Part shown: positions 3,098-56,499 of the stretch, in pieces
How positions within the stretch are numbered: the first letter of the stretch is position 1
How the letters are laid out: each line of letters starts with the position of its first letter
Origin: Narcine bancroftii
Taxonomy: Eukaryota
DNA length: 64,000 bases
Reading direction: 5' to 3'
Assembly: GCF_036971445.1 (NCBI RefSeq)
Contig: NC_091473.1
Span: forward strand, 210,924,001-210,988,000
Notes under the pieces: model-generated
The model's input: only the letters and a program-made list of their open reading frames with translations
Database searches by the model: none
What the model was told of the DNA's origin: nothing
Translations under genes and position numbers: made by a program

Positions 3098-6000
3098 TCA
3101 ATGTTGTTCAGCAGCTCGTTTAATTCGTTGGATGTGGCTCCATCCCTTTTCTTTCGTTCGCACGGCAGTGTCTGTAATCAAAAGTACACAATAGGTTTTA
3201 GTTAGTGATCTTGCCATGCTTTTACATATATCCAATCATCAGGTTTAATAGAATGAATAGGATACTCCAGGGGTGAGATTTGAGCTAATAAACTCTTCTG
3301 TCGTAAGTCATACAGAGAAGTAGAAAGTCCCTGTAGATATTTAGATATGTACTGGTCATTAGCCTCAGGGATAGGGGTATCAGTGTGGAATCCCATGTAA
3401 GGAAGACCAAACATCATTTCATATGGTGAGACAGCAAGGTCCTTATGAGGAGCTGTGTGAGTCCTAATTAAAGCTAAGGGTAAGCATTTAATCCAGGAGA
3501 GGCCAGTTTCCTCATGAAGTCGAGTGAGCTGATTTTTCAAGGTCTGATTCATTCGTTCAACACAGCCTGAGCTCTGGGCGTGCCATGGGGTATGGAGCTG
3601 CCAATCTATTACCAGTATTTTACACACACCCTGGAGTACCTGAGAGGTAAAATGTGTACCTCGATCTGAGTCAATAGTTTGAATCATACCGTATCGTGGA
3701 ATCACAGACTCCAGTAGTATCCTAATAACGGTCCTGGCACGATCATTAGGGGTCGGGAAAGCCTCAACCCATCGTGTGAAATGATCTACTGTGTAAACCC
3801 CTATCTTAGGTAATTCCGTAAAATCAATTTGTATCCATTGAAATGGGCATACAGCTATATCGCGACCACCAGGCATTACCTGGCACATAACCCCGCGTAC
3901 TCTGCTTGGCTATAGTGTATATTCCCGAGCAATGCAAAGACCGTACAAAAGTATCCACAAGTGCCTGTGTTCCCCAGCGTGTCTGCTGGTGGAGCTGATC
4001 AATAATTTGCCGAGCCAAGGCTTTGTTCAGCACTTGGCGTCTTTCTGCCGTCCACCACAACTCATCAACAGTTTGACGCATTCCCTGGTCCTTCATGTAA
4101 ACCTCCTCTTCCCATGAAAAGATGGCAGTCTTTTTAACCTCAAGTGGGGTGGGCAGTAACAGCTGCATGTCTATTTTCTCCGTGAGCACAGCCTGTTTAG
4201 CAGCTGCATCTGCCTGTCTGTTCCCCTGTGCTTCAGGACTGTCACCACTTTGATGGCTTCGTACATGAACTACAGCTATTTCCTCAGGTAATGTAAGAGC
4301 ATCTAGAGATTGGACAATTAAGTTTTCATGGATCAACTTTTGTCCTTTCCCAGTTATCATTCCCTGCTCTTTCCAGATCTTCCCAAAGGTGTGCACTACA
4401 GCAAAAGCGTTCTTTGAGTCTGTGTAGATCGTGCCCACCTTGTTCTCTAGACCCTGGAGAGCTCTACGGAGGGCATACAATTCACAAGATTGTGCTGACC
4501 AATGACCGGGAAGGCGACTGGCTTTAATCACTACTCCTTCCTTCCCATCCACTACACTATACCCGCTATAGCGAGTGCCATCAATGCAATGGGAAGATCC
4601 ATCAATAAACCACCTTTCACCCTCCTGTAAAGGCTCATCGCTTAAATCCTCTCTAATTTTGGTCTGTAAATCTATTACCTCTAAATATACATGCTCTAAA
4701 TCATTTGGAGAAACCAAGAAAGCTGCTGGATTGTGTTCTTTATTCGTAATCAGGGTCAAATCATCCCTATCCATTAGGATCGCTTCATATTTTAAAATTC
4801 TAAGCCACCTTCCAGCACGTTGTAAGAGAATATTGCTGACTGTGTGAGGGGTGTGAACTATCACCGGGGCACCAAACGTAATCTTTCATCCTTCCTCAAC
4901 TAAAATAGCAGTGGCTACGATGGCTTGCACACATTCTGGCCAACCACGACAAACAGGGTCTAAAACTTTTGACAGAAAAGCAACTGGCTGTCTACAGCCT
5001 GCCCTCTCTTGTGTTAGTACTCCGGTGGCCACATCTCCTTTCGCATTGGTATATAGGTCAAATGGCTTATTTAGGTTGGGTAAAGCCAACACTGGGGCAC
5101 TAATAAGGCGCTGTTTCACAAAGTTAAAATCTTTAATCTCTTCCTCTGTCCAGACAACAGCTTCGCCCCCTAGAATCGTGAGTTTATCATAGAGAAATCT
5201 GACCAGGCTAGAATAATTTTCAATCCAGATTCGGCAGTATTCCACTAAACCAAGGAATTTCCTAAGTTCTTTGGCATTCTTGGGAGGGGGGATCTGTAGA
5301 ATACCATGCATTCTCTCTCAACTTATTTTCCTAGTTCCCTGACTTACCAGATGACCTAAGTTTTTAACTTCTGATTGAACAAATTGCAATTTGGATTTGC
5401 TCACCCTGAGACCCTTATTCTCCAGAAAATTCAAAAGTTCAACAATATACTGTTTAACTAATTCGTACGTTTTTCCCGTAATTGACAAATCATCAACATA
5501 TTGTATCAACAGACAATTCTCTCTCCGAGGAGCCTCATCTAATATTTGTTCTAAGACCTGGCCGAATAAATTTGGTGATTATGTAAAGCCCTGGGGAAGG
5601 ACCGTCCACCGGTATTGATTCTTGTGTCCAGTAAAAGGATTTTCCCATTCAAAGGGAAACATGTCTCTGCTCTCTGTTGCTAACGGACAGGTCCAGAAAG
5701 CATCTTTGAGGTCAATCACACTAAACCATTTACTATGGGGATCAATTTTACTCATTATTGTATAGGGATTAGATACAACTGGGTGACAGGTGAGAATAAT
5801 TTTGTTCAGCTCCCTCAAATCCTGCACTAATCGATAGGTACTGTCTGGTTTTTGGACAGGTAAAATTGGGGTATTAAAAGGTGACATACAAGGTTCGAGT
5901 ATACCATCTTTTACCAACTGGTCAATTACTGGCTGCAGCCCCTTTCGGCCAGCTATAGGAATTGGGTACTGCTTTCGTCTAATTATTTGCTCAGGATCTT

Positions 6001-6466
6001 TTAAAGTAACTTGCAGGGGAGGAATATCTAACACTCCTCTTTTGCCTATTTTTGCCCATACTCCAGGATTTATTAGTTCCCGATCCTCCTCGGTTAATAC
6101 ATACAATTGAACCCCAATACCTGATTCCAGTGGCCTGGTGCCGCTGGCCAATTGGTCCTGTAAATCTCAACCTAACAAACAGACTCCAGCTTGGGGAACT
6201 AGTAAAATATCCTCTGTTATTACCTTTTCTCCCATTTGAATTCTTACATCTCTTAATACAGGGACTCTAAAGTCTCTTCCTCCTACTCCTGAAACTATCA
6301 CTGTCCCTTCTATCCTAACACCCTCGGGTGGTTGTAAAATACTAGACCAGGCTGCCCCAAAATCTACTAAAAAGGTCATCTTGTCACTATGGGGTCCTAT
6401 GCTTAAATTTACCAATGGTTCTCCGTGCAGCCCCACGGTGTGTATTGACTGAGAACCGTGACCCCC
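3098..6466 (-). pseudogene. pol: Class I ERV pro-pol, frameshifted
   Basis: ORFs 6167..6436 (PR, DFG at active site), 5579..6151 and 5318..5509 (RT LPQG, YVDD), 4886..5311, 3824..4864 (RNase H), 3202..3888 (IN). Confidence 0.92.
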
Positions 6467-8125
6467 CTATTCATAATCTGCTTCCATCAGGGCGTAGAAT
6501 CATGTCTCCCTGGCTCGCATTGGGCATTCTCTCTTAAAATGTCCCTCCTTTTTACAATGGTAGCAAACTAATGCTCCTGTTTCCCAATTCCTACCAGGGT
6601 CTCCATGGGGTCCTGGGAATGGTCGTCATCCCCGGAATTCTCCTCTACCCCTGCCGCTGCTCTGGTCTCTACTTCCCCATTCCTGGCGCTCCTCCCAATG
6701 TCCAGGAGCTGGCACACAGCCCCTACCCTTTCCTTGCTGTCCCTCCATGACTTCCTTGACTGCCTGCATCAAAATCTTAGCCTTTCCTTTCTGTTTTTCC
6801 TCAGACCTCTGGATGTATGCCCTTTGTGCGATCTGTAAAAGCTGTGTTATTCCCTGTTCATGCCAATTCTCAGTCTTCTGCAATTTTCTCCTGATGTCTG
6901 GGGCTGAATTAGTAACGAAGCCCGTTAATACCAATTGTTCACCCGCTGGGGATTCTATATCCAGACCCCCATATTGCTGTATGGCCGTACGCAATCTATT
7001 CAGAAATGCAGAGGAGGTCTCCTCGGGACCTTGGGGAACCTCAAATGCTTTCTTAAAATTCTGTCCCTTTGGAACAGATTCCTCGATTCCTTTTATCAGA
7101 TTAACCCTATATTCCTCCATTAATGTGTGACCATCATTAGTATTCTTATCCCAATTTGGTTTTGCCAGGGGGAATTTAAGTTCCCCAGGTATCGCCTCTG
7201 GTCCCCCTTGGTGTTCCCTATCCCAGACTCTAATCCCTGCCTGGCGAATCATTCCACATTCATCCAAAGTAAACAGAGCCCTAAAAATCGGTGTTAACTC
7301 ATCCCATGTATATATATTTGGTTGAAAAAATTGATCTAATTGTTCGGCACATCCCTGAGGATCCTCTATCAGGGAGGTCATTTCTCTCTTAAAGTTACGC
7401 ACCTCCGTACTAGTCAGGGGCTCATTTACAAAACCGAGACCCTCTCCCACGGGAACTTCCCGTAAAGGTCTCATCCAGTTAATTTCTGGCTTATAATGTC
7501 TAGGTTCCTGCTCTCCGGGAAATAAATCAAAGGGTTCTGCCCTTTCCTCCCGGAAGGTCTCACACTGTTCTGAGTCCAAGTCTCCTCTAGTACTTTGTGA
7601 ACGGGTCATCATACCACCCCTACTTTCTTCTCCTTTCTTTAGCTGTGGGGGAGGAGGGGATGGTGAAGAAGGGTAGAGCATAGGAGAGAGGCGAAAGATA
7701 GGAGCCGGTATAGGAGGAGCATAAGGTGGAGGAAGGGAATGTAACACATCCCATCCTTGTGTTTCAGGGACAAAAGGTTCCTCATCCTTCTTGTCCTTAC
7801 ATTCCTTTTCATTCAAAACCAGTTGATCAACCGATCCACTGAGCCAGCAGGCTGCACATTTTCTGCTCTCAATATTATCTCTTTGGTTTTGATAAAGCCA
7901 GATGTTCAACGCCTGACACATCCAGTCCTCATCGGATCCGAACTTTGGCCAATATACCGAATTCCCTTTTATCAGGTTTTTAACCCATTCCAGACAGCAA
8001 TACCTGACCATGGTCTATTTGTCTTTCCCGCGGATTCTCCCCGCACCCCAATCAGATAGCATTAATCCTAACGGACTTTGCTTAGTTATCTGATCATCCC
8101 GTCCTTCCTTACGACTATCTCCCAT
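6467..8125 (-). pseudogene. gag: Class I ERV gag, frameshifted
   Basis: ATG at 8125 (MGDSRK); ORF 6626..8011 with PPPY late motif and MHR-like QGPEETSSAFLNRL; CYHCKKEGHFKREC near 6520-6570; TAG at 6467-6469. Confidence 0.9.
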
Positions 8126-9183: not shown

Positions 9184-12100
9184 TGTGATGGTACACTGCA
9201 GTACATCACTTGGACAACAGGTGGATAAGCGACATAGCTTCTGGCCTATTGACACCTGACCCCCAGGTAGGCCCAAAGGGCTCATGGTATAAAGCCAAAG
9301 TCCCAACTGTGCTCTCTCTCTCTCCCCCAGGTTTACTGTAAGCACAGCTAGCAGCCAACTAGATATTTATGTGTGGAATAAAGCTGTGTTGCCCTAAACA
9401 GTATTGTGCCTGTGTTTTCCTTTGACACAGCCTGCCACAATTTATTCCACTCACATAAATATCTACCATATACCCCAGCAACAGGCAGGTTCTCCTAGTG
9501 TCCAATAATCACTCAGTGAAAGTAAAGGGTTACTGTGTGGTGCCAATAGAAATTAAAGGGATGGAGTATAGGGACTTCTGTCTGCTGGTCCTGGAACAGT
9601 TCTGCGTCACGGTGCTGTTGGGATTAGACTTCTAGTGCCAGCTGGAGAGCCTCATGGTAGTCCACAATGGACCACAGCCCCCCTAGTGCTTATGAGGCAA
9701 AAGCATTGTGCACTATTAATCCTTAATATCGAGCCCCATCCCTTATTTACCTACCGCACCCCAGACTAAACCATAGCCATAAATATCAGGAGGTACGGCC
9801 CCAGAGACCGAACTTTTATTAAAATGAAGACACGCCGAATGCTGCAGGAGGGCATCATTGAACCCAGCAGCAGCCCGTGGCGAGCCCAAGTAGTCGTAGC
9901 AAAGACAGGAGAGAAACTATGCTTAGAGGTCGACTACAGCCAGACCATTAATGTTCACACAGCTGGATGCATACCCTCTCCCCTGGATTAGCAAAATGGT
10001 GATTACGATAGCCCAGTATAAGGTCTTCTCCACCACCAACCTCAAGGCTGCATACCACCAGGTGCCTATCAGGAGGATCGTCCGGCCCTATATGGCATTT
10101 GAAGCCAATGGCCGACTCTATCAGTTCCTCCGACTCTCTTTCAGAGTAACTAACAGGGTATCACTGTTCCAGAGGGAAATGGACTGACTGGTGGATGACT
10201 ATAGCCTGGAGGCTATTTTCCCGTACTTGGACAATGTTACCATCTGCGGGCACTCAGTGAACAACCACAACACAAACCTAAAGAGATTCCTGGAGGCAGC
10301 CAAAGAACGCAACCTGACATACAATGAAGACAAGTGTGTGTTCGGAGCTAGGTAGCTGGCTTTGTTGGGTTACGTAGTACAGAACCGGGAGGTGGGACCA
10401 GATCCAGCTTGCATGCAGGCTCTGATGGACTTACCCATCCCCAGTATGCCTAAATCACTCAAAAGATGCCTGAGCTTATTTGCCTATTACACACAGTGGA
10501 TAACCCAGTATGCAGATAGGGCCCAGCCACTGATGAGAGCAAAAGAATTCCCTCTGCCCAGTAAGGCGGTCCAGGCATTTAACAGCCTGCACGACAACTT
10601 GGCACACATCACCATGAGGGCTGTGTGGTGAATGTCTGCCAAGCTGCCTGTCTCTCCCCTCTGGCAAGCCTTGCTGTACTAACATTGGCTGTGCATTATC
10701 TCTACTGATAAGGATACTCCTGTTAAGGACACTGTATATGCATCTATTGTCTTTCATTATAGTACCACGAGTTTCTACTAATAATAGCCATGATTATTTT
10801 TTGACCACATCGTCTTGGTCTACTTCATCAACTGGCACTTCAATTTTATTAGCAGAAATGGATGCAGCCCTCAACCCAGAGAGGCTAATAATCAACCAGT
10901 CTGCCCCGAGGGCCAAAGAAATTTTCAACCACTGGATTGGATTATTTCGATTACCACATGGCTCAAAACAATGTGGTCGATGAGGCGATACAGTAGGGCC
11001 ACCTGAACTCTGCTGAGTGAGGTCCCTTTTGCCATAATGCAAGGAGCTACCACTCCGGCTATAGCTCGGGAATGTCTGACTACTTACTATGCAGCGCCAC
11101 GGATTGTGGTGCTTGCTTGACACCATTTGCTGACTAGACGCCATTTGCTGACTAGACGCCAGAATCCCGGGGAAAGAGGTGCTGCTTAAGGCACTACATT
11201 CTATTCGGTCTTTATTGTGTACTGCAACAAATCAAACACCTCATGAACGTGTTTGCCTTTCCGAGGAAATCAGGAACTGTGATGGACTGGCCAGTCTGTT
11301 TATCTGAGCCTGGAATCGTGCTGCTGAAGGGCCATGCTCGGGCATGTAAAACAGACCACCGAGTCCAACCAGTTCAGCTACTGCATACTAACCCCAACTA
11401 CGCTCATGTTAGATTCCCAGACGGGAGTACTGACCCTGTACCCCTAAGAGATCTGGCCTTGCCTGGTTCGCCCCTTCCTCACAGCCCTACTCAGAGTGAG
11501 CCTGAGAAATTGGACGAACCCCCCCTCCCAGCCTGTGACCCCTAGTCAGCTTTCAGATGACCAAGCTGAGGCTCCACTGCCTCACGCTGGCGATTCTGGA
11601 GCGGGCCCAGAAGCCATTCCTTCCCAGACTACAGACCCAGGAACTGTACCAGTTCCCAAGGTTGCAAAGGAGCCACCTGTTTTGAGACAAAGCACCAGAA
11701 TTCGTAAACAACCTGAGAGGCTGACATATTCATAAAACATCTCATTATATTTCAATTGCTTGCTAGATACTGACATATTTTGGCTATTAGAGTATCTCAA
11801 GGCCAAACATGGTATCCATGTATCGCTTGCTTCAGTCTTTCCTAGCAGCTGTCCTTTTGATTTTAACCCTTCTTCTGCTGGGGAGACTGTGGTGAATGTC
11901 TGCCAAGCTGCCTGTCTCCCCCCTCTGGGGAGCCTTGCTGTACTAACATTGGCTGTGAATTATCTCTACTGTTAAGGACACTCCCCTTGGGTATAACTGT
12001 GTATGCACCAATTGTCATTATTGTACCATGAGTTTCTGCTAATAAAACCCATGATTATTGTTTGACCACATCATCTTTGTCTACTTCATCAACTGGCACT

Positions 12101-13617
12101 TCAGGCTGTAGACGAAACACTCCCCTTCCACCCTGAACCAGGAGGGACGCCCGGTGGCTTTCTTTTCTCAAATGCTGCAGGGCTTAGAAACCATGCACTT
12201 AGCAGTGGAGATAGAGGCCCAGGCCATAGTGGAGGCAGTAAGGCACTGGAAGCACTACCTGGTGGGCAGCCATTTTACACTGGTCACAGACCAACAGTCT
12301 GTAGCTTTCATGTTTGACAACCAGAACAAGGGGAAAATTAAGAATGATAAAATGTTACGTTGGATGATTGAACTGTCTACTTACTCGTATGACATCTGAA
12401 TCCGCCCGCTAAGTTAAATGAACCCCCGGATGCACTGTCCAGGGATGCTTGCATGACCACTCAACACATATCCCAGCTGCAGAACATTCACAGCGAGCTG
12501 GGGCACCCCAGAGTGACCAGGATGTTTCACTTCATTAAGAACGCCAACCTGCCATTCTCGGCAGAAGTGGTAAGGACTACTACAAAGGGTTGTCGTATAT
12601 GTGTGGAATGCAAACCACAGTTCTACCGCCCACCTGAGGCAGACCTTATCAAATCCACCTGGCCATTAGAGCATTTCAGTATTGATTTTAAAGGCCCCCT
12701 CCCGTCCACCAATAACAACTGTTACTTCCTCACTGTGATAGATAAGTTCTCCTGGTTCCCCTTCGCCATCCCCTGCGCAGATGTGTCCACGGCAGCAGTA
12801 ATAATGTGCCTGAAACCCATCTTCATCATGTGTGGATACCCTAACTATATCCACACAGGGGGGGGGGGGGGGGGGGAAAGCCTTCATGAGTGCCGAGCTG
12901 CAGCAATACTTCTGAGAGAGGGGGATTGCTACCAGCCGCACCACAAGCTACAACCCCCAAGGGAATGGGCAAGTAGAGAGGGAGAATGGTACCATTTGGA
13001 AGATGGTCCTTCTGGTATTAAAGTCAAAGGACCTCCCTGGTATCCAGGTGGCAGGAAGTGTTACCCAAGACGTTACACGTGATATGCTTGTTATTGTGTA
13101 CTGCCATAAACATGACCGCACATGACAGAATTTTCTCTTTTACAAAGAAATCGACCCTGAGCTCGGAGATGACACATTGGATGATCTCACTGGGCCCGGT
13201 GCTGATCAAGAAACATGGCCCAGTGCTGATCAAGAAACATGGCACGAGATGGACCCTCTGGTCGAGAAGGGAGAGCTGATCCACGCAAACCAAAACTATG
13301 CATTTGTGACTTTCCCTGTGTGAGCAATACCAGGACGTTTTAAAGGGGGTGAATGTGATGATACACTGTAGTACATCACTCGGCCAACAGGTTGCCTTGA
13401 GACACAGCACCCGATCTAATGACATTCGACCACCAGGTGGGCCCAGAGGGCCCATGGTATAAAGCCTAGGTCTTGACCATGTGCTCGCTCTCTCTCTCTC
13501 CCCCGGGATCTCTGTAAGGACAGCTAGCAGGCAATGAGATATTTATGTGAGTGGAATAAAGCTGTGTTTCCCCAAACAGTATTGCGCCTGTGTTTTCCTT
13601 TGGCACAGCCTGCCACA
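9184..13617 (+). mobile_element. Ty3/Gypsy LTR retrotransposon, gag-deleted and decayed
   Basis: LTRs 9184-9439 and 13354-13617; PPT AAAGGGGGTGAA; RT (LDAYPLP, YLDN), RNase H (EAVRHWKHYL), IN (SIDFKGPLP). Confidence 0.9.
10624..12103 (+). mobile_element. Nested non-autonomous Gypsy element (1.48 kb)
   Basis: LTRs 10624-10842 and 11888-12103; perfect TSD GGCTG; gag start MDAALNPERL joined to IN C-terminal remnant (VQLLHTNPNYAHVRFPDG). Confidence 0.92.
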
Positions 13618-18600: not shown

Positions 18601-20058
18601 TAGAGTCCTGGACGCTGGGTATTCAGGGCAGTGAACAGTGAAGTGTGGAAACAGATTCCAATCACACACGAGGAGAATTGTATTGTTTATTCCTCTCAGG
18701 TGACAAAATGTCACCACAAAACCATCAGACCCATAACATAACGTTTTACAAAGGGAAGAGGGAGTGGTGCAATTTAACCTCAATATAACGGTGAAAATCA
18801 AATTACAACCCACATTAACAACTTCCCACCAGATTCTGGCACAGAACCTGCTCCACAAACCTGGAACTTTCCCGGCTTCAGTCCGGTCCCCTCCCTGCAT
18901 CCTAAACCCCCATCCACTAAGTCGGTCTACTCCCTACGCACTGAGCATAGACCCGATTCCTGACGCGGTCCCCGTGTGGAACTTCAGCAAGGGAGATAGC
19001 CGCGTTTTTTCCCACAATGCAACGGGCGCCTGAAACCATACAAACGAGCAAAACAGCAACTAAAGCACGAGACCTCATTCAATGACATCATCATGCACCT
19101 TCAACTATTGGCCTACTTACATCCTCGGACACGCCTCCAGGCCAATCATCACACATTCTCCCCATCGGTTTCGGAAATAGATAATGTCAATCATGCTCCC
19201 TCGCACTTTGACAGGGAGGCAGACCGCGCATCTTTTGTAAGTAAATACATAGAAATAGTGGAGAATCTCAGGAGGTCCCGCAGCGTCCACAGGAGCTAAA
19301 AATCTATTCTCGATGCGGCGGGTGAGAACCCTTAAGAGAAAAAGTAACTTCTCATCCCCCAGCACCACTGGCTGTAGCCGGAGATCAGCGAAAACATGAT
19401 GCTCGAACTTCCACACTCTTCCCCCGCCCCTTCCCCTCCCCTCGACAGCCTGGAATAGATTTCTTCCAGTGCAGGAACTGGTCCATTTTCACAGGATCTG
19501 AATTCAGATACCTTCTCTCCTCCAATGTTTATCCTATCTAATTACTCATCCCCGTCCTCCGGATGAAGGCACCGGTTGGGAACAACGACGCTCTCACGCT
19601 CCGCTTTCACACAGGTCGAAGCTCTCCCTCCGTCTCCTGCTACCCGTAAATAATTTTAGAATTCATCATTTTTGTCTTTTGTGTACATTTCAATTGCTTT
19701 TCATTTGCGTTACAACATCGGCCTGCCTCTAGTTTCCTGATTGAATTAAAACACCCCCACAATATCCTCCACAATTCCGTGCTTTCACCTGTGTTCAATG
19801 ACAGTGGGAACTTCACCGGTTCGGCTCCGATTCCCCGTTCGCAGTGACCCGGACAGAGAGAGCGACTTCTGATTGGTGGAGCGAGGCGCTGGGATTTGTT
19901 TGCTCGGGTATCCAACCAGAACTGTCACCGCAAAATACATCACCAATGACAATCCTTTCTATCTCCAATCCCTTATTAGCATGGGGCGACGGGGCTGCCT
20001 ATTTAACCTGCGCTCTCAGATGTTGTGGTTATTTCAGTGTTTGAAGGTGATCGAGGAA

Positions 20059-20433
20059 ATGCCTGAGCAGCAGAAACCAGCTCCCAAGAAGGGCGCCAAG
20101 AAAGCCTTGGCCAAACCAGCAGGCAAGGCCGGTAAGAAGCGCAGGAGGGTGAGGAAGGAGAGTTACTCCATCTACATCTACAAGGTGATGAAGCAGGTTC
20201 ATCCCGACACCGGGATCTCCTCCAAGGCCATGAGCATCATGAACTCGTTCGTTAACGATATTTTCGAGCGCATCGCGGGCGAGGCTTCCCGCCTGGCCCA
20301 TTACAACAAGAGGTCAACCATCAGTTCCCGGGAGATCCAGACCGCCGTGCGCCTGCTGCTACCCGGGGAGTTGGCCAAACACGCCGTGTCGGAAGGGACA
20401 AAGGCGGTGACCAAGTACACCAGCTCCAAGTAA
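20059..20433 (+). CDS. H2B: Histone H2B, intact, 124 aa
   Basis: [15 protein letters not shown]...[26 protein letters not shown]...TKYTSSK; upstream CCAAT boxes, ATTAGCAT octamer-like site and TATTTAA. Confidence 0.97.
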
Positions 20434-20473
20434 AGCTCCACAGGGAACTGACCAGACAGACAGAAAACCCAAC

Positions 20474-20489
20474 GGCTCTTTTAAGAGCC
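20474..20489 (+). terminator. Histone 3' stem-loop (H2B)
   Basis: GGCTCTTTTAAGAGCC followed by purine-rich downstream element. Confidence 0.95.
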
Positions 20490-21268
20490 ACTCACAGTCT
20501 CACTGAAAGTGTTGTACCACAGTTTCCATAATAATTTCCGAGCGATTGATTATCCTGAAATTTCTGCTTAACGTGTTTATTCTCACAGTTTATGTTGATC
20601 CAAGTTTGCGGTTTCAGTGTGGCCTATTTCTGGTGTCGCTGTCGAATTCCTGCCCCCGAAAGGGCCACGGAAACGTTATCACGGTTATAAAACATTTTGA
20701 CAATCGGGAGTGATTAATGTGGGCAAAATACAAGCGTTTTCACTGTTTAATTGCTACTGTGGGCGCGTTCTATGATCTGAACCCCCGCATGATGTTACTG
20801 CCCCGAACGCCACCCTTGATCAGTCTGTTCACGTTCTTTTCCCGGAGGGACATTTAAGGCTAATTAATGCTGAGAATCGTTTCCTTTCCTGCATCTGTTA
20901 CTTCTTGAAATAAATCGGGTAATTGTTCACAGCGATTCTCGGGATATGAATACACACGATGTAAATGTGTCGTGATTGATCACTGATGAGCAGAAATCAC
21001 GCCAACAATCAGATTCACAACAACTTGTTTTCAGACTCTGCACAGATGAAATTTCACGGCCTTTTCACATTTCGGCGATTGGGGAAACCGGCCGTTATTC
21101 TCCCCGTTCAACGAGCTGCCGCCTGTTCATTGGTTGCTCTCGGAATGGGGACCTCGCTCAGCCAATGACAGTGAGCACTGAAGGTCCAATCATCAGGCTC
21201 CCTTTCCATTCCTCCAAAAGGTACAAGAAGGGCGACTGCGACGTTAGCTTTTTATTGGTAGTGAGTGA

Positions 21269-21667
<399 letters not shown>

Positions 21668-21696
21668 AGCGGCACGAAGTGAACCCAGTGACCAAA

Positions 21697-21712
21697 GGCT
21701 CTTTTCAGAGCC
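21697..21712 (+). terminator. Histone 3' stem-loop (H2A)
   Basis: GGCTCTTTTCAGAGCC. Confidence 0.95.
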
Positions 21713-22390
21713 ACTGACAGTGTCTGGAAGGGCTGACCAGGCTGGGGAGAGCGGGGGGAACGAGTTATACGTAAAATTTTTCATACATATATTTAGGCAA
21801 GTTTCTTGGCCGAATTGAACGGAGAATGGTTGGGACCGAAACAGAATTAAGGTTTAAGCATTTCTCCTCAGTTCATATTCCGACACGGATGACGTTGACT
21901 TGGCTGAACTACATTCTTCAGGACAATTAAACCAGCAACAGGATAAATCCGTACGAAAAACAAGTGGCTGGAAATGGGGACGGGTGTGCAGGATGTTGTC
22001 TGATTCAGGAACCACCTGACGGGAGGAAAAACGGAGCCCGGCCACCGGGGTCAGAAGGGACTGAGTAGCCGATTCCGTGGCATTTTATCAAAAACAATCA
22101 GCTTTCTTCTTAGTAGGTAACTACCAAGGAGAATATAAAATGACATTTAACACACCCAGACCAATATCACAGATTGGGAGGGAGGAGGAGGATCATTGGG
22201 GATTTCCATAGAAATGCTCCAGACCGACAAGGAGTGTAAATTCTGGTGAGAAGCAGTGATGACTGCACTGTTTTAATAGAAGCCCTGCAGATACAGAAAC
22301 AAATTTGGGTCGAGAATGGTACTGCTCATTCCATTGTCAGGATAGTGGGTTGGAAAAGAGCCTTTCTGGTACTTGGTGCCGAGACCGAGT

Positions 22391-22761
22391 TCAGGCGCGT
22401 CCCCGCGGATGCGACGGGCCAGCTGAATGTTTTTGGACATGATGGTGATGCGCTTGGCGTGGATGGCGCACAGGTTGGTGTCCTCGAAGAGCCCCACCAG
22501 GTAAGCCTCGCTCGCCTTCTGCAGGGCCATGACGGCCGAGCTCTGGAAGCGATCTCCCGCACCAGGCGTTGGAAGGGCAGTTTGCGGATCAACAGCTCGG
22601 TGGATTTCTGGTAGCGCCGGATCTCCTTCAGAGCCACGGTGCAAGGTCGGTAGCGATGAGGCTTCTTCACTCCGCCCGTGGCCGGAGCGCTCGGTGGCCA
22701 GCTCTTTACGAAGAACTTTCCCGCCAATGGATTTGTGCGCCATCTGCTTGGTCTGAGCCAT
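22391..22761 (-). pseudogene. H3: Histone H3 pseudogene (arm A)
   Basis: [11 protein letters not shown]..; frameshifting deletions at the KAARK region and at AQDFKTDL; stem-loop degraded to GGCTCTTTTCCAACCC. Confidence 0.95.
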
Positions 22762-23542
22762 TTCGCTTCAACAATGCGATCACAATCTGAGACATGAGGA
22801 CTGGAATATGAACCTGGCTCAGGCTCCGACTTGTAAAGTTGGTGAAGATCCGCCCCACCGCTCTGAATGGCTGGAGCAGGGATGGCAATCATCGTGTTCC
22901 AGGGTTGTGATTGGCTCCATCATCATATGACTCAGGAGCCGTTTCAGATCTGCAGCGGCGGGAGGAATATTGTCTTTGACCGAGACGTGACTTGTAGCGG
23001 ATCTTTAACCAATAGAAAGAGAAATGAAACAGGCTACCGTGCGATTGGTTGTAGTTTATTTTCAAATCGCCGGCCAATTTTGGACAAAAATTTGATGGAA
23101 AAGCGGTTCTCTCTAATTATTATTAATATAATCATATCAAATTTATTTTACATATTAATGAATTTTCTCATTCCACCAGTATGGCTGATGGACTAAACCG
23201 CAGCTGAACCCAAGGAGATTCAACTCTGCCGGAAACTGGAGAACAGCGACTGTTCCCGGGAGGGAATTTCCAGTCCGTTTTAGCGACACCACATTAAAGA
23301 GTTGTTCGGTCAGAGAGCAGAGATCGCCTCGAGGAAACTTCGGCTAGAGATCACCCCTCATTCTTTACATCCATCGACATGTCCTTTCCTCATCATGAAT
23401 CATTGTGGTTGGATTCGAAATGCACAATGAAAGAATTTCTAGACCACAATATTTTCATCTCAATCCGTGCCCGTTGTAGCAGCTCCCTCTGTGAGGCATT
23501 GGGCGGCCTTTGTTTTGTTGTGTGTAGAAAGGACAGAGTTCT

Positions 23543-23829
<287 letters not shown>

Positions 23830-24824
23830 AATTCCATTTGTTGAAATTGCTGATCAATGACAGCTCCTCTACTGCTGACCCCTTTTATACACAGCGCCCC
23901 GACCTGGCTGAGGACGCGCAGTGAAGGGGAGGGGAGGAGACAGAGTCAGAGTGACAGACAGAGCAGAGAGCGGCCTCTCATCTTCCGCCCCGGCCCCGGA
24001 AATCGCTAATTTCCAAACGTTATTAGCAGAACAGAAACAGCGACCGCGAACAACACACACGGGGTTACATTTTTTCCGATTTTCTGAAATACGAAATCTT
24101 TAAATAAGCACCGTGATATTCCCGCTGAAGCTCTGCCCCTTCGTTAACATAGGAAGGAGTCAAGGGTACATTAGAATTAGGAGCAGGATACTGCTCGGCT
24201 TTCAATAAGAGACTTGATCTGGACTTGGACTCGGCACCATTTCCCGTAACACTTAATCCTCTCTTCAGCAATCTCTGACTCTTGGAAGCATTTAATGAGG
24301 TAGCTTCACTGGGCAGAGAATTCTGCTGATTCACTTCCCTCAGGGATAAGGCATTTCCTCATCTCCATCTCAAATCTACTCCCCGGATCGTCACTACGTG
24401 CCTCCCAGATCCCATCTCCTTCCGTTTCACCCCCAAAGCCTGTCTCGTCCCCACACCTCCGCTCCTCGGTGAACAATCACCTTAACACGGCTGATATGGG
24501 AAGCCTCCCTGATTTGGCTGCAGACTCTGAAGCAGAATTCTCCCTCTTTGTCCCCGTCTCACTCTCCCCCAGAATCTGACTGAAGGAATTGTTGATGAAC
24601 GGAGACAGACGCCGATCACATCCCCAGACCGAGTGAGGCTGGTCCCGGACATCCCGTTCTCGGGGTTTTGTTTGGACACTGGGGACCGGGCGGGTGCAGA
24701 GAATGTGGTGGAGTTACCGGGGATGGCGGGGCTTCGCGTGAATGATGCCCCGCTGGAATGTGAACGCGGTGCCGGGACAGGAGTGACGTGACTGGGGTGC
24801 AGCTCTTCACTGAGGGATGTGAGT

Positions 24825-24840
24825 GGCTCTGAGAAGAGCC
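24825..24840 (-). terminator. Histone 3' stem-loop (H1 pseudogene)
   Basis: GGCTCTTCTCAGAGCC with downstream GAAGAGCTG. Confidence 0.9.
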
Positions 24841-24875
24841 GTTGGGGTCAGGAGTTATACGTTGAGCTTTTTCTT

Positions 24876-25142
24876 TCACTTCTTGGCCGCTGCCTTGAGT
24901 TTAGATTTCGGCCGGGCCCTGGATTTTCCAACCTTTTTGGTACCTTCACCTTGGTGACTTTGGCCTTCGAGGGACTCTTGATCTTCTTCGGGGTCGCCTT
25001 TTTAGCCGCTGGTTTCATGGTGCTGTGTTTCTTGCTGGGAGATTTCTTGGCGGGAGATTTCTTGGTGACTGATCTTTTGGCCGAAGATTTGGGCACCGGG
25101 AGCGGCAAGAGGAGAAGCTTCGGCCGTTGAGGTCTCGGTTAT
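24876..25142 (-). pseudogene. H1: Histone H1 pseudogene (arm A), globular domain deleted
   Basis: ATG changed to ATA; TETSTAEASP N-tail joined directly to the K/SPKK-rich tail by a ~350 bp deletion relative to 54506-55152. Confidence 0.92.
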
Positions 25143-29124: not shown

Positions 29125-32100
29125 CCCACATCTAAGTCGCTGATATACATTGTAAACAACTGTGGCCCCAGCACGGATTCCTGCTGTATCCCACTAGTCA
29201 CTGGCTGCCATTCTGAAAAGAATCCATTTATGCCTTCTCTGCTTCCAGTCCATCAACCAATTCTCTATCGACCTTAATACCGTACCTTCTATACCATGCT
29301 TTTTAAGTTTGTACGCTACTCTTCTGTGCTGAACCTTATCAAATGCCTTACTAAAGTCCAGATATACCACATTCACTGATTCCCCCCTATCCACTCTACT
29401 GGTTACATCCTCAAAAAATTCTATAAGATTTGTCAGACGTGATTTTCCCTTCACAAAACCATGCTGACTCTGTTCTATGATACCACTACTCTCCAAATAA
29501 CTGTGATTGCCTTTTTAATAACTGATTCTAGCACCTTCCCTACTATCAATGTCAGGCTAACTGGTCTGTAGTTTCCTAGTTTCTCTTTCCCTCCCTTCTT
29601 AAAGAGTGGGGTTACATTGGCCACCCTCCAATCCTCAGGAACGAATCCAGTGTCAAAGGAGGTTTGAAAAATTATCACTAATGCATCCACTATTTCCTGG
29701 GCTACTTCCTTCAGCACTCTTAGATGCAGACCATCTGGTCCTGGGGATTTATCCACCTTTAATCCCTGCAATTTAACTAATACAACCTCTCAACTTACAA
29801 TTATACCCTCCCTCACATTAGGTCTCCTATCCTCAACAATTTCCTGAAGATTAGTTATGTCCTCCTTGGTGAAAACAGAACTAAAGTCATATATAACCAT
29901 ATAACCACTTACAGCACAGAACAGGCCAGTTCGGGACTAGTAGTCCATGCCGTAACAAATCCCCACCCTCCTAGTCCCACTGACCAGCACCCAGTCCATA
30001 CCTCTCCAATCCTCTCCTATCCATGTAACTATCTAGTCTTTCCTTAAATGTAACCAATGATCCCGCCTCGACCACGTCTGTCAGAAACTCATTCCACATC
30101 CCCACCACCATTTGCGTAAAGAAATTTCCCCTCATGTTCCCCTTATAATTTTCCCCCTTCAATCTTAAACCATGCCCTCTAGTTTGAATCTTCCCCACTC
30201 TTAATTGAAAAAGCCTATCCACGTTTACTCTGTCTGTCCCTTTTAAAATCTTAAACACCTCTATCAAGTCCCCTCTCAATCTTCTACGCTCCAGAGAAAA
30301 AAGCCTCAGTCTGCACAACCTTTCCCTGTAACTCAAACCTTGAAATCCTGTCAACATTCTCGTGAACCTTCTCTGCACTCTCTCTATTTTGTTTATATCT
30401 TTCCTATAATTTGGTGACCAAAACTGTTCACAAGTACTCCAAATTTGGCCTCACCAATGCCTTGTACAATTTCATCATAACCTCCCTACTCTTGAATTCA
30501 ATACTCCGATTTATGAAGGCCAACATTCCAAATGCCTTCTTCACCACACCATCTACCTGAGTATCAGCCTTGAGGGTACTATTTACCACAACTCCTAAAT
30601 CCCTTTGTTGCTCTGCACATCTTAATAGCCTACCATTTAATGCATATGACCTATTTAGATTTGCCTTTCCAAAATGTAACACCTCACACTTATCTGTATT
30701 AAATTCCATCAGCCATTTCTCAGCCCACACCTCCAGCCTTCCTAAATCACCTTTTAATCTACAGTAATCTTCCTCACTGTCCACAACACCACCAATCTTT
30801 GTATCATCTGCAAACTTGCTTATCCAATTCTCCACCCCTACTTCCAGATCGTTAATATATATAACAAACAATAGTGGACCCATGACCAATCCCTGAGGAA
30901 CTCCACTAGACACCGGCCTCCAATTGGACAAACAATTTTCTACCACTACTCTCTGACACCTCCCATCCAACCATTGCTGAATCCATTTCACTACCTCCTC
31001 ATTTATACCTAATGCCTCCACCTTTTTTCCTAACCTCCTGTGGGGAACTTTGTCAAAAGCTTTACTAAAGTCTAAATAGACAACATCCACAGCTTTCCCT
31101 TCATCAACCTTTTTTGTAACCCCCTTGAAAAACTCAATCAGGTTTGTCAAGCATGATCTACCCCTGACAAAACCATGCTGATTACTCCCTAGCAATCCCT
31201 GTACCTCCAAATAATTGTAAATACCATCCCTCAGAACACTTTCCATCAACTTGCCCACCACAGACGTCAGACTCACGGGCCTATAATTCCCAGGTTTACA
31301 TTTAGACCCTTTCTTAAACAGCGGAACCACATGCGCCACCCTCCAATCCTTTGGCACTACCCCCGTGGCCAGTGACATCCTAAATATCTCTGTTAATGGC
31401 CCCACTATCTGTCCACTAGCCCTCCTGAGTGTCCTTGGGAATATTTTGTCCGGTTCCGGAGATTTATCCACCTTTATCTTTTTCAACACAGCCATCACTA
31501 CCTCCTCGGTTATCCTTATATGCTTCATTACCTCCCCATTATTTTTCTTTACCTCAACTGGTTCAATATTTTTTTTCCCTAGCGAATACCGAGGCAAAGA
31601 AATCATTCAAAATTTCCCTCATTTCCTCTGACTTCTCACTCAGCCTACCCTCACTATCTACAAGGGGTCCAATTTTATCCCTCACTCATCTTTTACTTTT
31701 AATGTACTTATAGAAACCCTTTTTGGATTTATTTTTACTCTGTCTGCCAAAGCCTCTTCGTGCCTTTTTTTGGCCTTTCTAATTTCTTTTTTAAGATTCC
31801 TTCTACACTCCTTGTAGTCCTCCTTCAAATTGTCAGCTCTCTGTTCTTTATACCCCTTGTACACCTCCCTTTTTCTCCTAACCAAATTTCCAATATTCCT
31901 CGAAAACCAAGCCTCCCTATGACTTCCAGCCTTTCCTTTGATCCTCACTGGGACATAACTACTCTGTACCCTCAAAATTTCTTTTTTGAATATCCTTCAT
32001 TTCTCATTTATACCCTCACCTGAAAATATCCTGTCCCTTCCTCCCCAAATCCCTTCGAAATTTGCTCTTCTCCAATCCAGAACCTCAACTTTAGGCCCCT

Positions 32101-33528
32101 CCTTGCTCTTCCCTAAAACTACCTTAAAACTAACAGAATTATGATCACTAGACCCAATTGGATCTCCAACATTAATATCTGATACCTGACCTAGCTTGTT
32201 CCCTAACAGGAGATCCAGTATTACACAGTCCCGAGTCGGTTCTTCTACTGATTGAACACATTTAATGAACTCTAGCCCAACCAGGCCTCTAACTGTATGG
32301 GTAATTCAGACAGTCTGCATACCTTTGTGCCCCATGATTAACTCACCTGTTTCTGTCCGCAATGGGCCCACATTTGTCTTAACCAACATCCTTCTCTTAA
32401 CATATCTATAAAAACTCTTATAATAATTTTTTATGTTCCCTGCCAGCTTTCTCTCATAATCTTGTTTACCTTTCCTTATTAATCCTTTTGTCTTTTTCTG
32501 CAGAACTCTGAATTTCTCCTAATCATCAGGAATATTTTTTTTGTGGCTAATTTATATGCTGCTTCTTTGGATTTGATACTCTCACTGATTTTCCTTGTTA
32601 GCCATGGATGCTCTACCTTCCTTGATTTATTCTTTTTACAAACTGGGATGTATATCTATTATACTTGCTCCAATCTATCCTTAAACAATTGCCATTGCAT
32701 TTCTACTGTAGTCCTTTAAGTACCATATGCCAATCAATTTTAGCCAATTGACATCTCATACCATCAAAGTTGCCCCTCTTCAAGTTCAGAAACTTTGTAT
32801 CTGAATCAACTCTGTCAGATTCCATTATAATGAAGAATTCTACCATATTATGGTCACTCTTGCCCAAGGGGTTCTTCACTACAAGATTGTTAATTAACCC
32901 TTCTTCATTACTCAGTACCCAGTCTAGAATTGCTTGTTCCCACGTTGGTTCCTCGACTTGCTGATTTGGAAAACAATCCCGCATGCATTCTAAGAAATCC
33001 TCTTCCTCCAGTTTGGTTCACCCAGTCTACATGTAGATTAAAGTCACCCATTATAACTGCAGTCCCTTTGTTGCATCCATTACCAATTTCCTGTTCAATG
33101 CCATCCCTAACCTCACTGCTAGTGTAAGGTAGCGTCTTGTGCCTCTTTGTTTTTCGCAGCTCTACCTACATTGATATCACATCTTCCAAGCTAATGTCCT
33201 TCCTTTCTATCACATTCACCTCTTCCCTAACCAACAACGCTACTCCACCTCCTTTAATGTTCTGTCTATGCCTCCTGAATGTCAAGTAACCCTGAATGTT
33301 GAGCTCCCAGTCACAGCCCCCTTGTGATGCCAATTATATCATAGTCATTAATAGCTATCTCCATATTCAATTCATCGACTTTTTTCAAATGCTCCTTGCA
33401 TTCAGACCTTGCATTCAGACTTACTTTACCCATATTCTATCCCATTTGCCATTATGTAAATAAGTATCTCTTTTTGACTTTCGCCTTGGTCTTACCTGCC
33501 TGCTGCTATTGCCTTTCACCTTGCTATC
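29125..33528 (-). mobile_element. Older CR1 LINE ORF2 fragment (EN-RT), interrupted by a second CR1
   Basis: ORFs 32703..32984 (ILDWVLSN..LGKSDH), 29475..29771 (KSPGPDG..NYRPVSL), 29194..29496 (QHGF..YLDFSKAFD). Confidence 0.88.
29888..32305 (-). mobile_element. Younger CR1 LINE, 5'-truncated
   Basis: ORF 30428..31606 RT with GVPQG and FADD; ORF 29971..30378 C-terminus; 3' tail (ATGGTTAT)n. Confidence 0.92.
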
Positions 33529-34282
33529 TGTCCTGGTAAACTTGTACCTCTCATTTTGTTCATTTTATATTGGTCACAGTGTTTGAGCTATTGAAAGAAA
33601 ACAGAGACACACGCTGAGAGCACTTCAGTTTATACATATCTTTATTACTAAATCTAAAGCTGATTTCAAACTACAATATGCAAGCCCTTCCCAATTATAC
33701 TTATCAATGCCTGGACTGGTCCCAACTGCTGAAGCGAGGCAACGACCGCACATTTGTAGTAGGTTGTCGGGGCGCTGGTAGCAGCTTCTTCACCTCCCCC
33801 GACCAGGACATTGATTGGACTCTAGAAGTTCTTCTTCTTGCTGAGAGATGTTTCCACCCCTCAGAGAGTCTGTAACTTCAGCAGTGGGACCATGGCTTAT
33901 ATCACCCAAAAATTGCTGACTCAAGCACTTGCGCAAAAAAAAGATAACCGAGCACGCCTCGGCTTCTATCAAATACCACAACTTTCTAGCTTATCACTTT
34001 GAATACACTGGTTTACTTCGCTTCGAGGTCTCACCTGACAGTCTGCGACCAATAATCCCATCAATCTCAAATAGCAACCGGCTAACAAGCAGGAAGATTA
34101 AACGTTCTTGGTGCCAGATGTCTTTTTGTCAGATAACTGCATCTCTGGGCCCCATGGTGGAATTTAGCTTATGTCTGCTGCTTCTTACATTATTCTCAAA
34201 GTAGGTTACTGATACTCAGCCTTGCATAAGCAAAAGCATGGTCTAAATCCTCCATTACATTCCACCCCTTGGTGGCAGTCTG

Positions 34283-35797
34283 TCACTTACGAGACCTAAC
34301 AAGAATTCGAGTACAGAAGGAGCAAATATGAGAAACCAAAACTACAATAATTACAAAAATAAGCAATAATGCGAGCAACCAACGGAGAATAGTGTGGCCC
34401 AATCCTCCAAATGTACCAGTTAACCATGAAAAAGGATTCCAACCAAGGCTCAAACTATCCTTGTGGGCCACATTACCCAGACGCTGAAGCTCACAAATAG
34501 ATTTTGAAATATGCCGAACAATATCAGAAATATTAGTGGATACATCAGGAACATACGAGCAACATTCAGAACCGACAACGGAACATGTGCCACCCTGTTT
34601 TGCTAAAAGAAAATCCAGGGCCATACGATTCTGTAAAGCCACTGTCCTGACGGCAGAGAGTTCGTGATTAAGGTCATTAAGGCCCTGACTGACAGACAAA
34701 AGGGCAAAGGATGTCTCATTGGCAATAGAGCTCATTCGATCATATAATTTGTGAACCTCTTGGGAAACGTGAATAACGCCATAACCTGGGATCAAGGCAC
34801 CAAAGAAATTCTCGACACCTGAGAGGGCATGTCTATACCGAAGGACAGAGAACATACGCATAAGCGAGGGATGATCCTGTAAATGGGAAATATGATGCAG
34901 GTAGGGGATGGCGTATGCCAAATAGCAGCAAGCACCCCAAGTAAGGGCTAGCCATGTAAAGGCGCAAGACCCACAAACCCAATAGGTCCTGTTCATAGGG
35001 TGCTTGGAAATGAAAGGGGAATATGCCAGACAATCACTGTATGCCTGTCAGGGAACTTACAAAAGCAGACAGAGCCCTTCATATGTTGAGAAACAATAAA
35101 ATAGGGGGGTGTCATATAATGGGGGTAGGAATATGCCTTCCTTGAAATATATCCAAAATGTCACGTAGACTAAAGAACTGGGCCTCCTCAGGCACAGACT
35201 TATTACCATCCATGTGAACCCTGCCTTTGGAGGGATCAAAATATTTCCAGACAGCAACTTCCTTTTGGGTGAAAGGAATGGGGATCATGGGAATGCCTAT
35301 ACCGGTATGCAAAGGGCCTACAGTACAAATCCAACAATCAGAAACATTCAGTCGGTGAGCGTACGCATAAGAAGCATGGAGAATGGAATTGTTGGACAAA
35401 TCTGAAGGAATATTTGATGTGAAGCAGGCCACCAACTCCCCCACAGAACCGGAATCCTCCCACCACTTAGTGACAGGTGGTGCAGAGTTATCACAAGATA
35501 TAAAGCAGATACAAAAATGCCCGTCACAGAAGTAGGGGGCGACTACTTCAGTTGGTCCATCCACAAACAGAATATAGGAACCGTGACCGGCAATAACATA
35601 TATAAGCTGCACTTGAGGCGGGTGACTGAGGACTTCTTTGGTGTAATGCATTGGGCCGTGTCCCCCACGGGCAACTCCCTCGGAACCTCTTCGACATTAC
35701 AAATCCAATTGCTGGCACCAAAGCAGCTGTTAAGCCAGATCAGCAGGAGCGCAAGACGGAGGACCTGGAACAAAGAAACCTGACATATGTCACTCAC
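34283..35797 (-). pseudogene. env: Gamma-type env, frameshifted
   Basis: Signal peptide; SU CWIC; TM immunosuppressive domain LQNRMALDFLLAKQGGTC; CX6CC; hydrophobic anchor. Confidence 0.92.
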
Positions 35798-38700: not shown

Positions 38701-38924
38701 GCCTGGGTGATCGCTGCTCCCATCTCCTCTATTCGAAATGTTGGTCCAGTCCAGAGTTCAGAGTTACCAGGAATCACCGAATGCTCCACACCGGTATCGA
38801 CCAAAGTCAAATATTGGCGGTCATTACCCCCACCCCAATGGATTGTTAACGGTATGTAGGACCGCAGGTCCCCGTGTATCCGCCGTATCTCAATGGAGTA
38901 GACACAGGTATCCCGCCTACACCC
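35790..38924 (-). pseudogene. pol: Class III pro-pol, frameshifted
   Basis: ORFs 38505..38810 (PR DTG), 38061..38498 and 37840..38064 (RT), 36519..37327 (connection/RNase H), 35911..36555 (IN). Confidence 0.92.
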
Positions 38925-40802: not shown

Positions 40803-41234
40803 CTAACCAGTATTCGAGTACAGAGGGAGCGAAAAAAGAGAAATCAAAACAACAATTACAAAGATAAGCAATGACGCGAGCAACCAACGGAGGATAGTGT
40901 GGCCCACTCCCCCAAATGTAGCAGTTAGCCATGAGAAAGGATTCCAACCAAGGCTCAAATTATCCTTGTTGGCCACAATACCCAGATACTGGAGCTCACG
41001 AACAGATTTTGAAACATGCTGAACAATAACAAATTTATATAAGCTGCACTTGAGGCTGGTGACTGAGGACTTCCTTGGTGTAATGCATCGGACCGTGTTT
41101 CCCATGGGGAACTCCCTTGGAACGTCCTCGACATTACAAATCCAATTGCTGGCATCAAAGCAGCTGTTAAGCCAGATCACCAGGAGTGTAAAATGGAGAA
41201 CCTGGAACAAAGAAGCCTGACACATGTCACTCAC
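40803..41234 (-). CDS. env: Mini-env ORF (signal peptide plus SU start fused in frame to TM anchor)
   Basis: N-part matches 35543..35797 and C-part matches the end of 34283..34996; expression unknown. Confidence 0.6.
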   Translation of the reverse strand: MSDMCQASLFQVLHFTLLVIWLNSCFDASNWICNVEDVPREFPMGNTVRCITPRKSSVTSLKCSLYKFVIVQHVSKSVRELQYLGIVANKDNLSLGWNPFSWLTATFGGVGHTILRWLLASLLIFVIVVLISLFSLPLYSNTG

Positions 41235-44773: not shown

Positions 44774-44783
44774 CTTGAGACCA

Positions 44784-44801
44784 ATCCTGCTCGCAGCGCC
44801 A
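44784..44801 (-). promoter_or_regulatory. tRNA-Ser primer binding site
   Basis: TGGCGCTGCGAGCAGGAT, near-complement of the vertebrate tRNA-Ser(CGA/TGA) 3' end as recalled; also at 46291-46308. Confidence 0.8.
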
Positions 44802-54505: not shown

Positions 54506-55152
54506 ATGACAGAGACTGCAGCGGCCGAAGCGGCTCCTCCTGCCACTCCCGGCGCCCAAACCAAGGCTCCCAAGAAGAAGAAGGCGGCTGCCCGGCCCAA
54601 GCCACCAGGTCCTAAGCTGGGCGATCAGATCGACAGGATGTGGCGGATTGCCGCGAGCGCGGGGGCATGTCCTACTTCGCCATAAAGAAGGCTCTGTCCG
54701 CAGGCGGCGTCGATGTGCACAAGTCCGCCTCGCACATCAAGACGAGCATCAAGAGGAAATTGGACAGCGGCCTCCTGGTTCAATGCAAAGGCTCGGGCTT
54801 GTCGGGTCACTTCAAGGCCGGGAAGAAAGAAAGGACAGTGACATTGGCAAAGAAAGCGAAGAAACCAGCGGCCACAGCTTCGAAGTCCAGGAAGTCGGTG
54901 GCAAAGAAATCTTCGGCCAAAAGACCAGTCACCAAGAAATCGCCCTCCAAGAAACCCGCGGCCAAGAAATCTCCCAGCAAGAAACACGGCGCCAAGAAAC
55001 CAGCGGCTAAAAACACGGCGGCCAAGAAGGCGGCCCCGAAGAAATTCAAGAGCCCCCCGAAAGCCAAAGTCATGAAGGTGAAGGCGACCAAAAAGGTTGT
55101 AAAATCCAGGGCCCGGCCGAAATCTAAACCCAAGGCAGCGGCCAAGAAGTGA
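54506..55152 (+). pseudogene. H1: Histone H1 with a single 1-bp frameshift near 54639 (young pseudogene or sequence error)
   Basis: MTETAAAEAAPP..; globular domain in ORF 54640..55152; K-rich tail; H1 box AAACACA at 54358-54364; intact stem-loop. Confidence 0.85.

Positions 55153-56163: not shown

Positions 56164-56499
<336 letters not shown>

Follow-up and report, generated by a model that had tools for sequence, protein, structure and literature searches.

How is reverse transcription primed in a retrotransposon whose primer-binding position is occupied by a complement of its own long terminal repeat (LTR)? This question is raised by two elements, one nested in the other, in a 64,000-nucleotide stretch of the 3.33-Gb Narcine bancroftii genome (NC_091473.1, positions 210,924,001 to 210,988,000), hereafter called the window. 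In both elements a short stretch of the LTR, the arm, is complementary to a tract lying just past the 5' LTR, at the position of a primer-binding site (PBS). The features of the nested element, with positions counted within the window, are the following:

10619..10623, + strand: left target-site duplication, GGCTG
10624-12103, + strand: nested element from LTR to LTR, with TG..CA ends and GGCTG on either side
10624..10842, + strand: nested 5' LTR, TG..CA
10756..10759, + strand: putative transcription start zone and putative primer 5' end, placed from extension ends in other copies (family LTR 134-137, 29-32 nt past the TATAA at 105)
10772..10786, + strand: arm in the nested 5' LTR, mismatched to the tract at two positions in this copy; predicted 3' portion of the primer, cut after its last A
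10843..10843, + strand: spacer, a single A between LTR end and tract
10844..10858, + strand: tract in the place of a primer-binding site, complement of the LTR arm
10858..11177, + strand: 5' part of gag, broken; its ATG (10858-10860) shares a base with the tract end
11177..11188, + strand: approximate junction of a one-off internal deletion, about 2.8 kb lost (family positions ~549 to ~3318)
11188..11733, + strand: 3' part of integrase, broken, without chromodomain
11880..11887, + strand: polypurine tract ahead of the nested 3' LTR
11888..12103, + strand: nested 3' LTR, TG..CA
12033..12047, + strand: arm in the nested 3' LTR, perfect complement of the tract, ending AATAAAA
12104..12108, + strand: right target-site duplication, GGCTG

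The initial annotation had described the tract as a perfect 15-nt reverse complement of the 3' arm with two mismatches to the 5' arm, a gag ATG beginning at the last base of the tract and a perfect GGCTG target duplication; all of these are borne out by the positions above. In 3000 dinucleotide shuffles of the nested 3' LTR, antisense matches to the 40-nt leader never exceeded 12 nt, a length reached once. The 5' arm is perfect in 25 of 30 nested-family loci, so the mismatches of the window copy are private to it. The same tract is present in 29 of these 30 loci, a biased count since the query contained the tract. Folding of the leaders, which had been proposed as a check, places the arm and the tract in a helix in the predicted minimum-energy structure of all ten leaders folded (z between -1.1 and -4.5). 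The folds also suggested a conserved second stem after the arm; this candidate was dropped as unsupported, because the stem length summed over 22 representatives was 97, whereas shuffles averaged 83.7 and reached 108.

The nested element itself says little about why the tract is kept. It had been read as a mobilised 1.5-kb non-autonomous derivative that retained the tract, a reading that did not survive comparison with its family. Full-length members are about 4.27 kb long, and among the 15 loci with two LTRs (20 were fetched, of which five had no usable second LTR) the shortened copies have breakpoints that differ from one another. Among the best 40 matches, the deletion junction is spanned in two only, the window locus and a 100% identical duplicate of it. 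A 1.5-kb family of the TRIM type is rejected on these grounds: the nested element is a one-off deletion, and it is uninformative on selection for the tract. Alignment of its two LTRs gives 192 identical and 23 mismatched columns, that is 89% identity versus 94-99% in 15 other copies of the family, so this copy is either older or chimeric.

The surrounding host element, a member of a different family of the same lineage, has the following parts:

9184..9439, + strand: host 5' LTR
9440: host spacer base
9441..9465, + strand: host tract, longer than the usual tract of its family and joined directly to the protease region, gag missing
13354..13617, + strand: host 3' LTR, with its arm at 13537-13560

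The claim that the host element shows the same spacing and polarity with a different LTR is upheld, since its tract (9441-9464) complements the arm at 13537-13560 over 24 nt in the same register; in 3000 shuffles no match exceeded 12 nt. Over 25 nt the host tract agrees with LTRs of its own family; it then passes directly into the protease region, about 1.4 kb further on, and its extra bases are missing from the internal context of ten other copies. The host element is itself an aberrant copy, of a kind discussed below. Both the host and the nested element are repeated 45.4 kb upstream (G000:C11:210887785-210889860), with 100% identity in every stretch searched, which is either a recent segmental duplication or an assembly duplication.

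The rest of the window is also rich in repeats. Broken endogenous retrovirus-like elements with Gag_p30, RNase H and integrase matches lie at 3202-8014 on the minus strand, and broken tandem copies of a similar kind occupy about 33500-46400, again on the minus strand, with pol at 41227-43662. Two 774-bp repeats, at 39993 and 44803, are 99.6% alike. A 6.4-kb inverted repeat pair (18728-25090 and 54907-61360) is 80% identical; a lysine/alanine-rich, histone-H1-like frame accompanies it at about 54600-55200, and the minus frame tested had no Pfam match. A separate reverse transcriptase (RT) frame is found at 30428-31606 on the minus strand, and a DUF1759 match below the cut-off, presumably a BEL/Pao-type gag, at 49687-50409 on the same strand.

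The arrangement seen at this locus is found, with different letters, in seven families of the N. bancroftii genome and in 22 of 26 testable metagenome loci. The metagenome scan yielded 79 loci, of which those with a gag start and 150 nt upstream of it were counted as testable; a perfect antisense match of at least 10 nt was present in 19 of them, three more became positive once the LTR was located, and four were decayed or partial. The screen of leaders against LTRs that had been suggested at the outset gave a clear excess: when the 26 metagenome windows were joined by 20 from this genome, all anchored on gag, 26 of 46 reached at least 10 nt of perfect match versus 17 of 1500 random ones. Five of the misses belong to one long-leader family, in which the tract is visible at its LTR. 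The tract-positive rows form one clade in an RT-RNase H tree (SH-aLRT 98), built by a quick method from 60 rows, with chromovirus and Mag references absent; in this tree, L133 and L156 may bear the label of a neighbouring element. The RTs of the lineage are about 50-65% identical, their LTRs are unrelated, and the geometry persists throughout. The shared spacing and polarity under different letters, together with the single clade, support the proposal of covariation and of a lineage-wide mechanism.

What is constant in this geometry was examined in 22 representatives (of 23 tried), some of them close kin. In all 22 the tract starts one base past the CA of the LTR and the arm ends in TAAA(A). 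The spacer base is A in 20 and T in two, and TTT follows it in every case, while the arm measures 10-19 nt and the loop varies from 24 to 68 nt. The hexamer of the arm is AATAAA in seven, ATTAAA in seven, GTTAAA in five and AGTAAA, TTTAAA and CTAAAA in one each, and GCC, GCT or ACC stands directly 3' of TAAA(A) in 21 of 22. The tract had rightly been taken for the complement of an LTR arm, and its description as anti-AATAAA has to be corrected: the invariant part of the arm is TAAA(A) rather than AATAAA. Arms of the seven families found in this genome have AATAAA, ATTAAA or AGTAAA at their end and leave 40-58 nt of LTR behind them; in two representatives, L092 and L149, a separate AATAAA lies within the loop. 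Compensated single changes between close relatives are seen in L096 against L099 and L101, in L092 against L093 and in the nested family against L173. Single copies show no such compensation, as six young-family 5' LTRs picked for a variant arm, and L266, retain the usual tract; L307 is a subfamily case.

A TGG-type tRNA PBS is absent from all 22 representatives. In a control family of the same genome, in which integrase precedes RT and which was returned by an SH3_Tf2-1 search meant for chromoviruses, TGG stands six bases past the LTR, which we take to resemble a tRNA primer site. This family has no complement at the first position past the LTR; an antisense match of 9-10 nt occurs in eight of 13 copies, about 19 nt past the LTR and away from the hexamer.

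The coding capacity of the lineage is best seen in a third, young family, in which gag and pol form a single frame, encoding protease, RT, RNase H and integrase in this order. This Ty3/Gypsy pol order holds for the young-family frame and the host fragments, and the best PDB match is Ty3 Gag-Pol (E 5e-63). Other hallmarks of the group are present as well, namely TG..CA LTRs, a polypurine tract and a target duplication of 4-6 bp, and the integrase-before-RT order that characterizes the Gmr1 clade is absent. Neither Chromo nor SH3_Tf2-1 was matched, at E up to 1, in the full young-family frame or in two integrase tails; with this result the lineage is not filed under Tf1/sushi. An identical 14-nt tract is carried by 67 of 68 parsed young-family copies, all found through their proteins. 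Leader variation among the young copies L081-L088 and L208-L267 lies mostly in the distal part of the paired tract and the run of T behind it, and may be the mark of the second strand-transfer joint. The named relatives of the pol proteins, a minority of the matches, carry the labels of corals, Hydra, Nematostella, echinoderms, Argonauta, Seison, Galleria and rays, and the closest named Gag relatives, 81% identical, carry a ray label. The Gag protein clusters matched in the atlas were generic only, and no relatives of the lineage were found in the viral contigs scanned.

Evidence on the function of the tract comes from copies in which it is extended as a copy of the LTR, in 254 of 1702 junctions of the young family and 61 of 736 of the nested family; the host family has seven such places, two of which are the duplicated window locus. 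The search used exact patterns, and the reversed-pattern controls returned none. Thirty young, 30 nested and seven host loci were fetched and sorted into three classes. In class A (24 of 30 young loci) the extension is a fold-back reaching LTR base 1-3. Nine of these contain the whole first LTR, seven of them with an exact 5-bp duplication on both sides; in the remaining two, the duplication is off by a base in one, and the other lies after a polypurine tract. In class B it goes from the arm through U3 and beyond LTR base 1, reaching the polypurine tract and then internal sequence (14 of 30 nested, none of 30 young and one of seven host loci). In class C it stops short and then jumps to another site. 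The class A insertions measure 433 bp in five cases and have two U3 ends, which indicates that integrase handled them; the 5-bp duplications on both sides show that they were made before integration. The two arms of the fold-back differ from each other in five of eight copies with a whole first LTR, which argues against a read artefact. Overall, the extended insertions show that the tract was extended on LTR sequence before integration. In LTR elements the 3' end of plus-strand strong-stop DNA carries the copy of the primer, and it is at this end that the structure of the fold-backs places the tract.

Several further copies are recorded here as observations. Among truncated young-family fold-backs (L319-L347) the left end lies at LTR 182-202 in ten of 15, without target duplication. 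The predicted young-family cut, 192/193, is close to these ends, which later loss of one arm explains equally well, so they were not counted as evidence. L333 starts at LTR 164 yet has a 5-bp duplication on both sides. One and the same extended-tract junction, at which the gag start is lost, is present in L324, L344 and L387; the three copies reflect either a repeated jump driven by homology or a small subfamily that was mobilised. In L303 (1564-1576) the LTR is followed by only 12 nt of tract and then by unrelated DNA.

If the tract pairs with a primer, extensions that stop short could mark the end of that primer. The young family shows an extension of more than 74 nt in 85 of the 100 matches listed. 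Its independent short ends, with L337 included and the recurrent junction counted once, lie at 21, 22, 31, 42, 44, 45, 50, 51, 52, 52, 53, 55, 56 and 57 nt, that is, eight of 14 at 50-57 nt and none at 58-74 nt. An initiator-like A is found at 52 nt, 32 nt past a TATA-like box, and one copy ending there runs on as a T run, which resembles a jump onto a poly(A) tail. Of the 17 short ends of the nested family, seven are found at 28-34 nt, TATAA being located 29-32 nt upstream, and one copy halts at 31 nt and then continues with a normal tract and ATG. Contigs from four sets presumed to derive from RNA extend over the entire LTR as well as its flanks, so that transcript starts and ends do not stand out in them. 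TATA-like boxes are located 41-70 nt ahead of the start of the paired arm, and the extension ends would point to a transcription start 15-36 nt upstream of it. Two ends overshoot the predicted start by 2-4 nt, exceeding the microhomology, and the recurrent junction shows 9/10 homology to its landing site. It should be added that the end cluster of the young family sits in the loop of a 10-bp imperfect LTR hairpin, which could also stall a fold-back copy. Against a crude uniform null, the clustering has P 0.0005 for all ends and P ~0.02 for the rows that followed once the site had been noticed, after the first 30 loci, with five of 11 ends in the expected interval. The agreement of two families at different distances is a better argument than these P values.

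We therefore favour, as the probable reading of these genomic sequences, that the tract is a self-primer binding site and that priming is free of tRNA. According to this model, the first 28-52 nt of the transcript would fold back, with only the last 13-19 nt pairing with the tract, and a cut directly after TAAA(A) would create a 3' end from which minus-strand DNA is made across the spacer base and U5. Counted from the transcript start up to TAAA(A), the primer would have a length of about 28-31 nt in the nested and about 52 nt in the young family; the cutting enzyme might be the RNase H of the element, by analogy with Tf1. The first strand transfer would take place via the short stretch from the cut to the poly(A) site. 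At its end, plus-strand strong-stop DNA would carry a copy of the primer, for which three partners can be envisaged: the tract of the correct acceptor, its own arm (giving class A) and the arm of the 3' repeat (giving class B). Class C would result from over-reading to the 5' end of the primer. The class B copies of the nested family can be accounted for by a 5' primer only via mis-transfer. Seen in this light, the name pseudo-PBS in the initial annotation was correct as to position and too weak as to function, as the aberrant copies indicate a working primer site.

Other explanations share parts of this evidence. Priming could start from the other end of the genomic RNA, if the arm of the 3' repeat, in an RNA cut or ended at TAAA(A), paired with the tract. 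An attached primer of this kind is expected to leave class B, as the nested family and one host copy do; however, none of the young loci has it, class C goes unexplained, and in two families the short extensions gather close to the predicted start. Since the arm is followed by 40-58 nt of LTR in the families of this genome, the 3' end of the RNA probably lies beyond it, and mis-transfer of strong-stop DNA onto the 3' arm yields the same products, so that we consider 3'-end priming unlikely. Alternatively, the primer could be the paired arm alone (13-19 nt), the transcript starting at the arm as in Tf1, and the extensions would be DNA fold-backs that stall randomly or at hairpins. The predominance of full fold-backs among extended young copies and the hairpin at their end cluster agree with such stalling. 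The spacing of the TATA-like boxes from the arm does not, nor does the nested cluster, which lies at another distance, is also about 30 nt past a TATA-like box and has no evident hairpin; a primer this short is improbable.

A role apart from priming has also to be weighed. The helix might only hide the 5' poly(A) signal or regulate gag translation, the primer being an outside RNA such as an internal tRNA piece. The presence of AATAAA or ATTAAA in 14 of 22 arms and the frequent position of the ATG at the tract end fit this idea. Against it, seven of 22 arms end in GTTAAA, TTTAAA or CTAAAA, L092 and L149 have their separate AATAAA in the loop, and a helix that serves to hide a signal has no need to keep exactly one base from the LTR end; moreover, the tract changes with the LTR of each family, which one host RNA would not follow. 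As a full explanation we regard it as distinctly unlikely. As a possible second role it leaves the register and the unusual-hexamer arms unexplained; in vertebrate families, where the paired arm includes the poly(A) hexamer, the priming helix may also hide the 5' signal. A tract without function, left over from an old template switch or arisen by chance in AT-rich DNA, is very improbable. Tract and arm are indeed AT-rich and inverted junctions are frequent in the lineage, but shuffles never reach 15 nt, the geometry persists over unrelated LTRs and RTs of about 50-65% identity, and the spread over families already contradicts this view.

Self-primed reverse transcription is proven for Tf1 and is otherwise mostly predicted from complementarity, in the group of Tf1 and in two plant lineages. 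Self-priming through the tract, if true, would extend this mode to a large animal lineage, whose primer and cut rule (after TAAA(A)) are apparently different. The aberrant copies supply evidence on mechanism from genome sequence, beyond complementarity, and precise positions of the start and the cut can be predicted from them. Elements of this type would be beyond the reach of tRNA-fragment silencing and would be mis-scored by annotation tools that require a tRNA PBS, and the aberrant insertions seed hundreds of short palindromes in the host genome. A broader scenario is quite possible and is put forward tentatively. An old, animal-wide, non-chromovirus Gypsy lineage might have evolved self-priming independently, using a long leader cut after the poly(A) hexamer, so that one helix both primes and silences the 5' poly(A) site. 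The price would be that palindromic 433-bp mini-insertions and copies lacking gag are produced steadily, at 8-15% of junctions; by recording the primer ends in host genomes, they would let the mechanism be worked out from DNA sequence by itself.

How the lineage relates to named clades and to other elements without a tRNA primer can be stated from partial texts of the literature. It resembles Mag A/B/C, CsRN1, Cigr-1, MolGy and LGF, which are compact Gypsy elements of the order PR-RT-RH-IN with a similar host range, and may be one of these clades; a comparison of its motifs with excerpts of papers and of five supplementary files of PMC6238403, made for a clade name, gave no match. Culex Mag elements are described as using tRNA Leu, Ser or Arg (excerpts of PMC3286476), unlike the present lineage with its lack of a TGG site, and excerpts of mollusc and annelid Gypsy surveys do not mention the PBS. 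Excerpts of the literature outside subscription journals and Repbase notes held no report of self-priming in an animal non-chromovirus Gypsy element, nor of fold-back insertions such as these. Fungal GalEa (Copia), with a conserved hairpin site, and Dictyostelium Skipper, with a polypyrimidine tract, also lack a tRNA PBS; in the passages available (PMC5445492, PMC5006619) their authors found no LTR complement, whereas the present lineage has one. Some Gypsy lineages are likewise without a TGG tRNA PBS, and self-priming has been predicted for plant Tcn1 (Ty3/gypsy) and TAR (Ty1/copia) from a complementarity of at least 10 bp starting 0-5 bp past the 5' LTR (excerpts of PMC6317226), a pattern that the present lineage shows too. 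Tcn1 groups with Tf1/sushi and TAR is a Copia element, and the excerpts of PMC6317226 make no mention of a link to the poly(A) signal or of aberrant copies.

The closest parallel is with Tf1/sushi. Tf1 and Tf2 of Schizosaccharomyces pombe, Tj1 of S. japonicus and Tf1/sushi elements in general are described as having no tRNA site and a PBS that complements their own LTR, so that a 5' piece of the mRNA serves as primer (excerpts of PMC4600332, PMC5006619, PMC6317226 and PMC3601003); titles in the reference lists of the first three indicate that in Tf1, RNase H cleaves the RNA duplex and the primer stays on. Like these elements, the present lineage carries at the PBS position a tract complementary to its own LTR, and unlike the Tf1/sushi chromoviruses its integrase has no chromodomain or SH3_Tf2-1 match. 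The Tf1 primer is 11 nt long and fully paired. The primer of the present lineage, in contrast, would be 28-52 nt long with an unpaired 5' part, and its arm, unlike that of Tf1, always ends in TAAA(A), overlapping the poly(A) hexamer in vertebrate families.
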